Source: an uncultured virus (IMG/VR IMGVR_UViG_3300039099_000002) (lineage: Duplodnaviria > Heunggongvirae > Uroviricota > Caudoviricetes). From it: a stretch of 38,052 bases of DNA. Of the stretch, positions 970-34,767 are shown one piece after another (the stretch's first letter is position 1; every line of letters begins with the position of its first letter). The notes under the pieces are model-generated. The model worked only from the letters and a program-made list of their open reading frames with translations, was not told the DNA's origin and made no database searches. The position numbers and the translations under genes are program-made. The stretch lies in the IMG/VR virus record IMGVR_UViG_3300039099_000002; one strand, given 5' to 3'.

Positions 970-1575
970 TTAGTTTTCTGTTTTTTCTCTAGAATTTAGC
1001 GACGCTATTATTGTCTGCTGATCAATAATAATATCCATCAGTTGCTCTACTGTTAGCTTTCTGAAGGCTTCAATATCTAATGCGGTAGATTCTCCAATCT
1101 GGTTTTTTATTTTTTCTAATTTTTTATTGTTATTTTTTACCGCTTTTTTTACATCTTCCTGTTCTTTCGCTATTTTCGCCACCCTCTCTTTTTCTTCCCA
1201 ATCTTTTAATATTTCTTGTCCGCGAAGTTTTTGCGCTTCAAACATTGATTTGTCTTGGTCTGACAAAATCAGTGATTCTAAATCCGCAGATTTATTAATA
1301 ATTTTTCCACCAATTATTTTCAAGAAACCAACATTTGTTTCTATACTATGCTGCTTCACTGCTTCAGTAAATCGGTAGAATCCATCTTCTAAATTGTCTA
1401 CCATTATCTTGCTTATGTGACATCCGCCGTGATATGCAATGTCTTTCCCTCTTTCTGAATCATCAAACGATGTGCCGTAATATTGCAAAATTCCGAAGTT
1501 TGGCATACCTACAATCGCTAAATGTGCCTTAATTCCCTCTCTATGGTGTGTTTTTAGGTTAATGAAGTTTTGCAT
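970..1575 (-). CDS. Hypothetical protein with a coiled-coil C-terminus
   Basis: 201-aa ORF directly downstream of a conserved promoter copy (1614-1641) and an A/C-rich leader. Confidence 0.75.
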   Translation of the reverse strand: MQNFINLKTHHREGIKAHLAIVGMPNFGILQYYGTSFDDSERGKDIAYHGGCHISKIMVDNLEDGFYRFTEAVKQHSIETNVGFLKIIGGKIINKSADLESLILSDQDKSMFEAQKLRGQEILKDWEEKERVAKIAKEQEDVKKAVKNNNKKLEKIKNQIGESTALDIEAFRKLTVEQLMDIIIDQQTIIASLNSREKTEN

Positions 1576-1613
1576 TGTTTTCTTTTTTGTTTTTGGTTTT
1601 TGTCTATATATCT

Positions 1614-1641
1614 ATAATACTATGGTCAACAAAAAAGTCAA
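1614..1641 (-). promoter_or_regulatory. Conserved element promoter, copy 1
   Basis: Minus strand TTGACT-N16(tttttgttgaccatag)-TATTAT. Confidence 0.75.
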
Positions 1642-1913
1642 CTAAAATTATTGCATATTAAACCACTCCTAACTTTTTTCTTCAGCTTGGGAGTTGATTC
1701 TACTAGTCGGGAAATGTCACCCATGCTGGCACAGTCGAATAGTTTCTTGTAGTTAGATTCTGCCCATTCTCTGACCTTCAACTCGTCCTCTTCTATGGCG
1801 AATTGAAAATAATTAGACATTACGGTTGGCAGATCATTCTTAATTACCAGTCTGTAGCCTGACACTCCATTTAGAGCGAACATAGGAACTGCAAAGCCAC
1901 CGTCAAGCTGCAT
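1638..1913 (-). CDS. Hypothetical protein, possibly the 3' part of a decayed longer gene
   Basis: 91-aa ORF. The same frame continues to an ATG at 2111 through two in-frame stops, next to an IS605-type end. Confidence 0.45.
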   Translation of the reverse strand: MQLDGGFAVPMFALNGVSGYRLVIKNDLPTVMSNYFQFAIEEDELKVREWAESNYKKLFDCASMGDISRLVESTPKLKKKVRSGLICNNFS

Positions 1914-2129
1914 TAGCTTTATTTCACTTATTTGGAATTCATAAGCAAAATTGTCTGCGTCTTTTCCGTGCTGCTCAAGCAGCTTTCTTGCTCTACTCCA
2001 ACCCCGGTATTGATCCTTTTAGGTTTTAGCTAATGTGGCGATCGCCACTTTGGTTACACAAAAGCTCTAATTAGCACCTTTTGAAGTTGTTCGGATCATT
2101 ATTGTTTGCATCAGGGTGCGAACGAGGAA

Positions 2130-2163
2130 TTGACACTCTCAGTGGCTTTATCCACTGAGTTTT
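2130..2163 (-). mobile_element. IS200/IS605-family right-end-like hairpin remnant
   Basis: Minus strand ctcagtgg-ataaag-ccactgag-agtgTCAA: a subterminal hairpin ending in GAGTGTCAA, the usual form of cyanobacterial IS605/TnpB right ends. No transposase nearby. Confidence 0.5.
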
Positions 2164-2330
2164 ACGCTTACCAAGCTATCGGAATAAAATCTCCACAATT
2201 TCTTTGTTAGATCGCTAAACTATCACCTTCCCACCATCTTTCCTTTCTTTCAACAAATGCGCCTCCGTTGCAATAGCCATAATAAGAGGGTGCTTGTAAT
2301 ACATTTATAATTTCACTGAAAAATAAAGCT

Positions 2331-2414
2331 GGGAAGATGATCACTTTCTTACAGGAAACTACCCTTTTTTCTTTGTATCTTCCCTTGACTTTTGTACCCA
2401 CTTTATGGTATTAT
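2331..2414 (+). promoter_or_regulatory. Repeat-module head, copy A: GGGAAGAT...ATCTTCCC inverted repeat plus promoter
   Basis: GGGAAGATGA at 2331, ATCTTCCC at 2377-2384, then TTGACT-N18-TATTAT; near-identical to 15700-15782 and 23831-23913. Confidence 0.7.
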
Positions 2415-2809
2415 ATGTAATTTGAAAATTTGGTGTCCAACCTTACGATAGAATAGGCATTTCAGTCGTTGTCATTGCCAAAAATCATGTAACACGCTTG
2501 TAGTTTTTTGCCGCCAAAAATCACCGTTTTCAGCGAAGCACAGAACAAATGTATTCTATGCGCCTATATTTACGCCTGTGCATATCTGGCTTTAATAAAA
2601 ATAAGCATGACAATTTGTCCTAAATTCACAGAATTTAGGACGATAAACTAAAGCTAACGATTTTTATTTGTCCAGAAAAAGATAAAAAGATTCTAGCAAC
2701 GACAAAATCGCAGTTTTAAATACCAAAATAATATAAACGCTTAAAATAAGCGCATACACACTTGGCGTTAGGTTTTTGCGGAATAAAAAACAATGAGAAT
2801 AATTATGTC

Positions 2810-3307
2810 TAATACTTAGTGTGCTTTTGTGCGGTGATTTAGTCCACACGGTTGGAAACCCAAGGTTAGATCATAATTTTGTTGCTTGAAAACCAAAAAG
2901 CATGACCGAAGCTTGGTGTGCTTTTGTAATGCACTTTAATCCAGGACAGTTACTGGCTCAAGTTCCCTTCAAAATCTTGTTAGTTTTCACCAACGTGCCT
3001 ATAGCACCTCTATAGGCTCACCAGTTTCTTCAAGGATCTGATGTTTAATCCGTTAGGATCGATGAGGCGAAGGTTCTTATGTTTCTTCAATCTTGGCAGT
3101 AACCATCTGCCTCGCGTCCTGTCAGCTTTTTGAGGTTATCTCGCATCCGAGGTACGAGTTGCCTTCCAGGTATAGGCTTTTTAAAACCGCATACGTATAG
3201 TAACGGGGGAATTTCCCTGGATATCTTGTCTCCTTGCGAACAAGACCCGAACGAGAACAGTTTAAAACCAAAACGCAGTACGCTTGATCTAAGGATTTAC
3301 TCTCGTT
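2810..3307 (-). ncRNA. Candidate large structured non-coding RNA (~500 nt), family unassigned
   Basis: GC-enriched island with no credible ORF, directly behind a TTGCAC-N17-TATTAT promoter. The predicted +1 begins a stem (AACGAGA/UCUCGUU). At least 10 hairpins or long-range helices, with GCAA, GAAA and UAAC tetraloops. The 3' end is approximate. Confidence 0.65.
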
Positions 3308-3313
3308 ATTATA

Positions 3314-3342
3314 ATAATAACATAAAAAGAAAAAATGTGCAA
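3314..3342 (-). promoter_or_regulatory. Sigma70-type promoter of the candidate ncRNA
   Basis: Minus strand TTGCAC-attttttctttttatgt(17)-TATTAT with an extended -10 TG. Confidence 0.65.
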
Positions 3343-3424
3343 GACATTTAGGAAAGAAATATAAATATAGAGGTAGGGTTAGCTGTCTAAATAATCAAAA
3401 TGCAATGAAAACGAAAACAAGGAA

Positions 3425-3772
3425 ATGAGCCTGTATCAACTACAGGAAAAATATGCAGAGATAGAAGACAAGTTAAACGCCCAATTGACAGAGAGTTTCC
3501 TATTAAGCTCGGAGACAGAATATGATTTGCTTGTTAGATCGGTAAGCGTCGAGCCGAGATTACTTGATGGTCGCGGATATTTGGAGATTTTTGCTAATTG
3601 TAAAAAATGGAATCCAAATAAAACAAGCGGATTAGGCAGAGAAAAGGTATTCCTAACGCCATACATGGTTTTCCAGAAAGACGTTTGGAAAGTATGCCCT
3701 ATCCTTGGACGGGATCTTGTGCGCGAAAATGTTACAGGTGTTGAAATATCCGAATCAGGGTGGATTAACTAA
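3425..3772 (+). CDS. Hypothetical protein
   Basis: 115-aa ORF with AAGGA upstream of the ATG, followed by a hairpin at ~3790-3822. Confidence 0.65.
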   Translation: MSLYQLQEKYAEIEDKLNAQLTESFLLSSETEYDLLVRSVSVEPRLLDGRGYLEIFANCKKWNPNKTSGLGREKVFLTPYMVFQKDVWKVCPILGRDLVRENVTGVEISESGWIN

Positions 3773-3849
3773 TATTTGCAATATTAAATAACATACCCAC
3801 AAATAGTGTTTGCGGGTATGTTTGTACTCAATTAAGGAAACAGAATACA

Positions 3850-4278
3850 GTGCTTGAGATTCATTCAGTAAGAAAACCCGCAGCAACTAATCCTAATTCT
3901 GGGGAGTATGGAAAAATATTTGATCGTGTCTGGGGTAAAGACTTCTATCCTGATCAAAAAAGTTTGATGGTTAAGTACGCATTTGATGTGCGTGTCGTTG
4001 TCGCTAAAACAATGTCTCCTAGACATCCAAGCTTTTACCCATTCCTGGAAGTGGGGATGGATTTGATTGAAAGGACGATGGCGTGTATTCCTCTAAATTG
4101 CGAAAAGGCAACATTCTATTTTCCAGAAAGATGGCTTGCCGTCGTTGAGCAGAGAGAGTTTATGTTTAAGTTGGAAACGACCAACATGGGTCTGAACTTA
4201 AAGAAGGTGGACATCTTGACTTCATCGCCAATTATGATTTCAGACTTTTTTCAAGAGCAAATTTTGATTATTGCTTAG
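3850..4278 (+). CDS. Hypothetical protein
   Basis: 142-aa ORF, GTG start, co-oriented with its neighbours. Confidence 0.65.
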   Translation: MLEIHSVRKPAATNPNSGEYGKIFDRVWGKDFYPDQKSLMVKYAFDVRVVVAKTMSPRHPSFYPFLEVGMDLIERTMACIPLNCEKATFYFPERWLAVVEQREFMFKLETTNMGLNLKKVDILTSSPIMISDFFQEQILIIA

Positions 4279-4328
4279 AAACCGAATCATCGCCAAACCA
4301 AAGAAGAAAACATCTAAAAAATACAATC

Positions 4329-4559
4329 ATGCCTAAAAAAATAGTTAGAGTTCCAATTACTGGGTTTGTGAAAATTGCTGTTGATGCGTCTAGCATAAAA
4401 GCTGCGGAATCTCTTGCACATTCGTTAGTAACTACAAGTTTGTCGCCAAGAGACGGAGTTACCGACTTAAATACCCTATTGACTGCTGAAGATTTTTGTC
4501 TTACAACTTACTCTTCTGCTGACAGTGCTTTTGTTGATGAAGATTACATTGATTTTTAG
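4329..4559 (+). CDS. Hypothetical protein
   Basis: 76-aa ORF after an A/C-rich leader. Confidence 0.6.
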   Translation: MPKKIVRVPITGFVKIAVDASSIKAAESLAHSLVTTSLSPRDGVTDLNTLLTAEDFCLTTYSSADSAFVDEDYIDF

Positions 4560-11386: not shown

Positions 11387-12073
11387 CTATTTTCCCTCGG
11401 CCGACTGGGGCGCAGAATTGTTTAGTCCCGCCAATCTTTCAAATATGCTGGCAACCATACCTTCTGTAGACTTTTGGCTTGCTTTTGATACTTTATTCGC
11501 TTCAATGCTTCTTGAATAGCTTTCTTGTATTTTAGTTAACAAACCGTCAGCCAATGATAATGCTTTTGTTTTTTGGTCTTCGTGCATTGCTTTATTGACA
11601 TTCGTCAAAATTTCTCGAATCTGCACTTGAGTTCTAAACTTGCCGTCAAGTTTGGCAAGTTCTAAAACTATCCCCTCTGTTACCCCAGACGTTGTTGCTT
11701 CCGAAATTTGTTGATCAAGCTGAATTTCACTAAGTTGTTGGATTCCTGCGTTTTGAACAGCGATCGCAGATTGAATAGTATCTTCTATCTTTTCAATTGC
11801 ACCGGGCTGGACACTATTTATGGGTTCATCATTTATGTGATCGGTCGTAGACTGAACGCTCCATGATGACAGTGCTGCCCTAAAATCTTTCTCTGTTACG
11901 CCCGATTTTGTCAAGGCTACAAAAACCTTGGATCTGAAATCTTCTACATTTAGAGGTAATTCAGTCGTATCTGACCATCCATCAACTTTGAAGCCTGTCC
12001 CAGCCATTTCAGTCAAAAAATTTTCAACATTTCCGCCGAAGAATTTGTCGGCTATAGCTTTTACTTTTGTCAT
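11387..12073 (-). CDS. Hypothetical coiled-coil protein
   Basis: Long ORF; likely start MTKVK at 12073; Q/E/K-rich helical C-terminal half. Confidence 0.65.
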   Translation of the reverse strand: MTKVKAIADKFFGGNVENFLTEMAGTGFKVDGWSDTTELPLNVEDFRSKVFVALTKSGVTEKDFRAALSSWSVQSTTDHINDEPINSVQPGAIEKIEDTIQSAIAVQNAGIQQLSEIQLDQQISEATTSGVTEGIVLELAKLDGKFRTQVQIREILTNVNKAMHEDQKTKALSLADGLLTKIQESYSRSIEANKVSKASQKSTEGMVASIFERLAGLNNSAPQSAEGK

Positions 12074-12226
12074 AATTGCCTTGTTGTTGTTTAATATAGA
12101 TACGATATTAACACGATATTTTAATATTTTCAACAATATTGACATAATATTTTTAATAATTTTGGCTTTCTTTGGATAGAGAAAGCCAAACAGGTGTAAC
12201 AAAATCCGAATGCTCCATACGTAAAA

Positions 12227-26001: not shown

Positions 26002-26250
26002 CTCATACACCTCACGGTAAGTGGGAAACTCAGCGTCTTTAGACCTGAGAGGGAAGCGGCGCGAGCGGTTTTAACCGCTGTGGTATTTTCTGTATTATCC
26101 GTGATGCGGATCTTCAATATATTTCCTCACCGATTCACCACTAACATTCCCTGCGGTGCTTACAAAATAACTACTTGTCCAAAGAGACGGTAGTTTTTTT
26201 AATTGGGGAAATTCTTTTCTGAGGTAGAAACTAGAACGCCCTTTAAATGC
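26002..26250 (-). mobile_element. tnpA: IS200/IS605 remnant: C-terminal fragment of Y1 transposase TnpA (26095-26250) plus element end
   Basis: Minus-strand translation AFKGRSSFYLRKEFPQLKKLPSLWTSSYFVSTAGNVSGESVRKYIEDPHHG*, followed by gcggttaaaaccgc and ctcaggtctaaagacgctgag end hairpins. Confidence 0.85.
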
Positions 26251-26289
26251 CCAAAAAATAGGCGCACACAACGGAATCTCAAAAATACT

Positions 26290-34694: not shown

Positions 34695-34767
34695 TACAGG
34701 ATACAGGAATCGAACCTGTCTACCACAAATTATGAGTTTGTTGCCTTAACCTCTCGGCCAATCCTGC
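34695..34767 (-). tRNA. tRNA with CAU anticodon, most likely tRNA-Ile2 (lysidine type)
   Basis: GCAGGATTGGCCGAGAGGTTAAGGCAACAAACTCATAATTTGTGGTAGACAGGTTCGATTCCTGTATCCTGTA folds into a full cloverleaf and resembles cyanobacterial trnI-CAU; CCA not encoded. Confidence 0.9.

Follow-up and report, generated by a model that had tools for sequence, protein, structure and literature searches.

Large phage non-coding RNAs are among the least understood gene products, and very few of them are, to our knowledge, known from cyanophages. Phages and prophages are a frequent source of the large ornate RNAs GOLLD and ROOL, and IscB-type transposons are the ancestors of Cas9. Oligomeric cages have been described for GOLLD and ROOL (PMC12286853). 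Protein-less derivatives of the IS200/605-ISC kind have also been described (PMC4810608; bioRxiv 10.1101/2023.03.14.532601), and the second of these sources describes the Rfam family RF02033 (HEARO) as lacking downstream structural elements. Phage RNAs that mimic CRISPR repeats and guides (PMC10651486; also 2026 preprints) are the nearest precedent for the mechanism proposed at the end of this work.

The DNA analysed here, called the window in what follows, is a stretch of 38,052 nt from an uncultured virus of the Caudoviricetes (IMG/VR record IMGVR_UViG_3300039099_000002). Its minus strand from ~3307 to ~2610 is probably the gene of a stand-alone, strongly expressed ~0.7 kb non-coding RNA of an uncultured cyanophage, with a sigma-70-type promoter of its own and outside the described RNA families. 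Its central ~100-150 nt (2895-3051) share ancestry with, or were borrowed from, a structured RNA domain that follows the HEARO (IscB omega-RNA) core of ORF-less, multicopy elements of the IS200/605 type in filamentous cyanobacteria with large genomes. The locus is a real feature and a candidate for a new class among the large non-coding RNAs of phages; the evidence for expression is solid and that for structure partial, and we infer the exact ends of the RNA, its strand and all of its function. An earlier note, made from the letters of the DNA, had described an “ornate” RNA of ~500 nt at this place, in a cyanobacterial phage-like element. Its observation was partly confirmed and its interpretation partly supported: the sequence features that it listed were there, its 3' limit and its length did not hold, the word “ornate” is not supported, and folding gave modest support.

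The cyanobacterial phage setting was borne out by 18 HIP1 octamers (GCGATCGC) in the whole window, vs. 0.14 expected by chance. The window encodes a thymidylate kinase, a C5 methyltransferase, a resolvase-like protein, an FtsK-like ATPase and a 1249-aa protein with lysozyme-like and M23 domains, while most other ORFs have no family; a tRNA-Met (CAT) gene is located at 34695-34767 on the minus strand (61 bits). The nearest records were two viral contigs from IMG/VR (138 and 62 kb). A broken IS200-like transposase remnant, which comprises 64 aa from the C-terminal part of a Y1 transposase (26098-26289, minus strand; PF01797, E 4.9e-12), was 89-93% identical to TnpA of genome G093, and was followed by a matching IS200/605-type element end (26002-26096, minus strand; nhmmer E 7.5e-18). 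This remnant (26002-26289) points to the host group and to a traffic of such elements into the phage.

Expression was seen in public sequencing runs. The stretch 2700-3345 was present in 20 runs from 13 studies, and the fraction of its sampled words found was 1.00 in 14 of 14 DNA runs vs. 0.75-0.87 in all six RNA-library runs with the stretch, the RNA runs analysed having been selected for containing it. In line with the earlier note, the stretch was present in RNA libraries, as four contigs of four studies: over 1500-4500, each of the four RNA runs examined (4/4) gave exactly one long contig (629-671 nt), namely 2641-3293 in run X15 (671 nt, word depth 124), 2638-3293 in X16 (657 nt, word depth 33), 2670-3298 in X18 (629 nt, word depth 133) and 2625-3276 in X19 (652 nt, word depth 8.6). 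Contig ends cluster at 3276-3298 and 2625-2670, and contigs cannot prove the ends, strand or level of an RNA. The same four runs gave no contig cover at 1702-2610 and 3318-4500, an absence that does not count as evidence. Pieces of 31-50 nt from RNA runs at 1567-1605 carried 3-5 mismatches and were set aside as unrelated.

The transcript would run from 3307 to 2610 on the minus strand (~0.67-0.70 kb). The contigs show ~2638-3298 of it; it probably continues for ~10 nt at its start and for ~30 nt at its end, where it would pass through a hairpin at 2641-2617. At the high-coordinate side, the contigs stop 2-14 nt short of the start that the promoter predicts (3300-3307), and in two studies the contig stops at one shared base, 3293, free of a loose end there, although the DNA records extend further (weakly suggestive of a true end). 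At the low-coordinate side, contigs end at or inside an 11-bp hairpin read from the sequence (2617-2641, minus strand; ends of three of the four contigs at 2641, 2638 and 2625), which has no adjoining U run and is the probable 3' terminal structure. A terminator scan placed another terminator-like hairpin, followed by a T-rich run, at 2737-2753 (minus strand), and the RNA-library contigs read through it. Because the low contig ends lie at 2625-2670, the RNA extends ~170-200 nt past 2810 and through the 2753-2737 hairpin; the limit of 2810 in the earlier note was therefore wrong, and its ~500 nt, against contigs that cover ~2638-3298, an underestimate.

The minus-strand promoter that the earlier note had read just upstream was present: a -35 hexamer TTGCAC (3337-3342), a 17-nt spacer and a -10 hexamer TATTAT (3314-3319) preceded by TG-n, with a second, overlapping hexamer TATAAT at 3313-3308. 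The promoter scan places the site one base shifted, with 9/12 matches and the TG. The promoter is kept in the phage record G001 as TTGCAT-17-TGnTATAAT, despite unrelated DNA upstream of ~3402, and the RNA body of G001 differs from that of the window at two positions in ~700 nt (3138 and 2963). The position ~3402 is a mosaic junction, below which the window and G001 (locus L001) are 98-100% identical and above which they are unrelated, G001 having a co-directional gene and a terminator-like hairpin there and the window a divergent 115-aa ORF.

Folding support is moderate and uneven along the RNA. The minus strand of 2638-3307 had a minimum free energy (MFE) of -177.9 kcal/mol (z -3.72, 0/20 shuffles as good), and folded better than the plus strand (-161.0 kcal/mol, z -0.93), in line with the strand given in the earlier note. 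For 2810-3307, the part to which that note had confined the RNA, the minus strand was modestly better than shuffled sequence (z -2.31, 2/100 shuffles as good; plus strand z -1.29). By thirds of the minus strand, z was -1.31 in the 5' part (3000-3307, 11/100 as good), -2.63 in the middle (2850-3060, 1/100 as good) and -4.31 in the 3' part (2610-2860, 0/100 as good). Most of the helices listed earlier lie in the 5' 308 nt, and since this part has a z of only -1.31, its small helices are not, on their own, beyond chance.

The sequence features themselves were as described earlier. All the listed motifs and helix arms were found on the minus strand in the places given for them, including hairpins capped by GCAA, GAAA and TAAC, and the GC-enriched island is real (G+C 0.43-0.45 in 2851-3300 vs. 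0.37 in the whole window). The 5' region (3052-3307, minus strand) has local hairpins, a closing stem AACGAGA/TCTCGTT and the GCAA-capped hairpin, and no homologue of it was found. The internal repeats TTGAAGAAAC and ACAAAAGCACAC occur twice each, all inside the RNA and nowhere else in the 38 kb; the copies of TTGAAGAAAC are at 3081-3090 and 3024-3033, and a related motif, TTGAAGGGAAC, is at 2962-2972 (all minus strand).

The minus strand is favoured on four independent grounds: it folds better than the plus strand, its promoter is of better quality than the plus-strand candidate, this promoter is conserved, and the homologous domain described below has that sense. A plus-strand transcript, starting near 2638-2641 and ending near 3300, would have a 9/12 promoter-like site (ATGACA-16-CAGAAT, 2607-2634) that ends 4-7 nt before the contig ends 2638 and 2641. 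The contig of X15 also carries the sole loose end, adapter letters and GGG before 2641, which is readable for either strand depending on library chemistry: as the start of read 1 on an antisense cDNA it would, with the widely used dUTP chemistry, indicate a minus-strand RNA, and as a template-switch junction a plus-strand RNA. In template-switch libraries, adapter and GGG at 2641 would mark an RNA 5' end, but of the three “GGG” letters two also stand in the genome (2638-2639), and the adapter may just abut 2638. Because its reading hinges on the chemistry used, the loose end was counted for neither strand. The plus strand folds like shuffled sequence and has no terminator near 3300, the minus promoter is far closer to the consensus and is conserved, and on the plus strand the homologous domain would be antisense to its host counterpart, with its G-U pairs turned into A-C mismatches. 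A plus-strand transcript is accordingly quite improbable.

The absence of a credible ORF, also claimed earlier, was confirmed, with no ATG-started ORF of at least 20 aa on the minus strand inside the RNA. The sole ORF of at least 70 aa in 1913-3425 is a TTG-started 73-aa frame on the plus strand. Pfam searches of seven frames within the RNA, on both strands, gave no meaningful match; the only one reported, PF19712, was at chance level (E 0.066, 13 bits vs. a cut-off of 27 bits). Recoding of TAG, TGA or TAA, tried as alternative genetic codes, opened no long frame at the locus. The transcript might instead be an mRNA for one or more very small proteins, as its minus strand has ORFs of 49 and 61 aa with GTG or TTG starts and the 61-aa product has a hydrophobic tail. 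Neither the 61-aa nor the 73-aa ORF, however, had a counterpart, not even itself, among 5.8 billion predicted proteins, no gene caller had reported either of them on any contig carrying this DNA, and this absence, with that of ATG-started frames and of Pfam matches, makes a coding role highly improbable.

Downstream of the RNA, minus-strand genes are located at 2207-2401, 1638-1913, 970-1575 and 567-956. The interval 1913-2610 comprises ~700 nt more without an ORF of at least 70 aa, and contains, on the minus strand, an 11/12 promoter-like site (2439-2410) and a terminator-like hairpin (2536-2521). The RNA might be the terminated or processed 5' part of a transcript of these genes (2401-567), a long leader or attenuator controlling read-through, considering that its orientation is that of the genes and that two terminator-like hairpins lie inside it or at its end. 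Such a role is unlikely: the promoter-like site at 2439-2410 separates the RNA from the genes, no riboswitch or leader family matched, and a leader of 0.7 kb would be unusually long.

Searches against known families placed the RNA in none of them. The Rfam 15 scan of the whole window at gathering thresholds gave only the tRNA-Met, and a scan of 2400-3700 at E<=10 gave two chance-level matches and none to GOLLD, ROOL, HEARO, OLE, introns, RNase P or tmRNA. Group I and II introns, RNase P, tmRNA, 6S RNA and riboswitches had no covariance-model match, ARAGORN added nothing, and there was no match to the family models of GOLLD, ROOL, OLE, raiA and the other large ornate RNAs of Rfam. The scan that the earlier note had asked for thus found no family for the RNA, and of the two options it had offered, a GOLLD/ROOL-like RNA or a new class, the first is contradicted even at E<=10 and the second stands as a candidate. 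The likeness to GOLLD and ROOL is that of a large phage non-coding RNA of unknown function which is highly represented in environmental RNA; unlike them, the phage RNA matches neither Rfam model and has no comparative support for an elaborate fold.

Full-length copies of the RNA were found in G001, G002 and locus L010 only, at 98-99% identity. No relative of the RNA was found by blastn against 50,697 phage records, and no new one in IMG/VR by two DNA patterns or by four baits made of neighbouring and phage proteins; the same protein baits gave nothing new in JGI metagenomes and no match in species-representative genomes. A protein relative, P0002, is 79% identical to the neighbouring 201-aa protein. 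When the RNA was compared by BLAST with 401 genomes of Cyanobacteriota and 301 genomes of the family of G093, never more than ~53 nt matched. Because the collections searched held no diverged full-length homologue, covariation is limited to the central ~100-150 nt and no structure outside 2895-3051 has comparative support; the term “ornate” is therefore not supported. The homologue search proposed earlier succeeded for the central domain, with cyanobacterial matches and covariation, and for the full length returned near-identical copies only.

The central matches led to host elements. Twenty-two of the 401 sampled genomes of Cyanobacteriota (5-8 Mb) had a BLAST match to window 2911-2961, at 77-96% identity over 25-55 nt and often with two scored copies per genome. 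In the eight loci inspected, the match lay inside an element of ~450 nt with sharp borders and unrelated neighbouring genes, and in seven of them a complete RF02033 match (125-155 bits) ended ~60 nt before the shared stretch. Searches with the 3' half of the element gave at least 42 matches in G093 (from 40 of 157 candidates scored), 39 scored matches in G171 and 10 in G395. IscB had 12-32 matches in each of five genomes searched, and IS605-type tnpA/tnpB copies were present in the three genomes searched for them, with a tnpA-side end that matches the 3' end of the element. From the HEARO core, the IscB copies and the matching tnpA-side ends, the host elements are taken to be protein-less (PATE-like) derivatives of the IS200/605-ISC group. 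Loci L135-L142 and L149-L160 (in G093, G171, G395 and others) show the ~450-nt ORF-less element as a HEARO core, a 3' domain and an IS605-type end, the 3' domain being ~110 nt long, strongly covarying and outside the coverage of RF02033.

The consensus of fifteen host copies was nested, with two hairpins inside three stacked helices. In an alignment fitted to the model (21 distinct rows), 98% of cells were paired and 19 of 29 pairs had double changes, figures that the fit to the model biases upward; values as high were not seen in any of 500 shuffles, and in slid controls 35-45% of cells were paired. The helices are rich in G-U (UG in 13 of 21 rows for one pair), and because these pairs are frequent the strand of the domain is read as that of the HEARO RNA.

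The domain was not found next to six full iscB genes. Where iscB is autonomous, the match is confined to the initial ~50 positions of the model and breaks off at the start codon of iscB, a codon located within the 5' strand of the domain's outer helix. As the iscB ORF occupies its place in autonomous loci, the domain is not part of the canonical omega-RNA scaffold. Of ten tnpA loci scanned, nine likewise lacked the domain upstream of the gene; the tenth (L171, in G171) has a HEARO-plus-domain copy ~1.7 kb upstream of a sense tnpA, with an antisense tnpB between them, and is read either as an IS605 inserted into an ORF-less element, the reading preferred, or as an autonomous form ancestral to the ORF-less elements. 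A resemblance of the domain to the 3' coding end of iscB, noticed by eye, had no statistical support and was not relied on. In L144 (G093), the iscB frame breaks just before the conserved C-terminal motif, and the sequence at the break starts, by eye, like a group II intron (a candidate).

In the phage RNA, the counterpart of this domain spans 2895-3051 on the minus strand (covariance model R1, 42.1 bits, E ~4e-8). The match covers model positions 1-141, and both its sequence and its nested helices place it in the host 3' domain, of which it is a distant member, given its 42.1 bits vs. 106-169 bits for host copies. With nhmmer, a profile of 17 whole host elements matched window 2999-2910 (E 2.1e-11); only element positions 247-339 matched the locus, with no end hairpins. 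Five of the 29 model pairs are non-canonical in the phage copy, three of them in one helix: the middle helix loses three pairs, and the inner helix and hairpins A and B are kept. Hairpin A (2941-2956, minus strand) has a stem CCAG/CTGG and a conserved 8-nt loop, TAACTGTC; its stem covaries among host copies and its loop is constant, and the phage has a stem sequence of its own under the invariant loop. Hairpin B (2918-2934, minus strand) comprises GTGC, a 9-nt loop and GCAC, one of its stem pairs being GC in 12, AU in 5 and GU in 4 of the 21 distinct rows. G001 and G002 have a single strong copy of the domain. A second R1 match in the window (12071-12194, 19.7 bits, AT-rich), the next best, was treated as chance.

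This domain, shared with cyanobacterial HEARO-bearing transposon derivatives and absent from the earlier note, is the sole link of the RNA to known biology. With the ORF-less HEARO elements, the phage RNA has in common the sequence, structure and strand sense of the 3' domain over its central 100-150 nt, including hairpins A and B and the enclosing helix. Unlike them, the phage locus has neither a HEARO core nor transposon end hairpins, is single-copy with a promoter of its own, and gives a transcript ~250 nt longer than the ~450-nt host element; moreover, no IscB or TnpB is encoded in the phage records. HEARO itself (RF02033, threshold 83 bits) had no match in 2400-3700, G001 or G002 even at E<=10, IscB (NF040563) had none in G001 and G002 at E<=1, and TnpB is absent from both (G001 being 83% complete). 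The locus does not have the context of a HEARO RNA, directly upstream of iscB or isrB or with IS200/605-type end hairpins.

Rather than a working part, the shared domain may be a passively carried leftover of a transposon that inserted long ago. As a rival explanation, the whole RNA would be what remains, still transcribed, of an ORF-less element of IscB or IS200/605 type that entered the phage genome in the past, and would have no function for the phage. The only homology of the RNA to anything is with such elements, the phage was demonstrably struck by the same element family, as the broken tnpA and the element end at 26002-26289 show, and the central domain is imperfect in the pairs lost. 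The matching part is, however, ~15% of the transcript, it corresponds to one internal segment of the element, and neither a HEARO core nor end hairpins flank the locus. The promoter of G001 keeps or improves the consensus over an RNA body that hardly varies, and since runs of 13 studies hold the stretch, it appears to be stably kept. We regard a relic as a doubtful explanation. In the reading that we prefer, the RNA is functional for the phage and the central domain is a working part of it, both of which we infer.

As to what that work may be, our tentative preference, from this analysis, is for an RNA that would bind proteins as a scaffold or decoy. On its transposon-type domain, a host factor would meet the surface that it also finds on the RNAs of the host's own elements, and would thereby be titrated or recruited during infection; the chance that the whole mechanism is right is low, though not negligible. 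The analysis linked the domain to no particular protein. The decoy hypothesis was drawn from the parallel with the RNA anti-CRISPRs (Racrs). Like Racrs and the guide-RNA mimics, the RNA would be a phage non-coding RNA copying part of a host nuclease-associated RNA (PMC10651486). Racrs, by contrast, are small and mimic the protein-binding repeat itself, whereas the part copied in the phage RNA lies outside the canonical IscB-binding core, any inhibition by the phage RNA being conjecture. In a more specific form, which is unlikely, the abundant phage RNA would mimic the guide-RNA domain of host transposons and so interfere with, or borrow, the IscB/TnpB-TnpA (OMEGA) machinery of the host. Our literature search found no description of an interplay between IscB-type transposon elements and phages.

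The RNA was seen in libraries from four or more independent freshwater studies and its DNA in runs from 13 studies, which suggests a major product of an uncultured, widespread phage whose hosts are bloom-type cyanobacteria, and its one recognisable domain connects it with the RNA parts of IscB-type transposons. The covariation-supported domain 3' of the RF02033 core, with at least 39 copies in two of the three genomes examined, may also help those who model omega-RNAs. If the mimicry of guide-RNA domains were true, it would be an interaction at the RNA level between a virus and transposon-encoded RNA-guided nucleases, like that of the RNA anti-CRISPRs but directed against the evolutionary ancestors of their targets.
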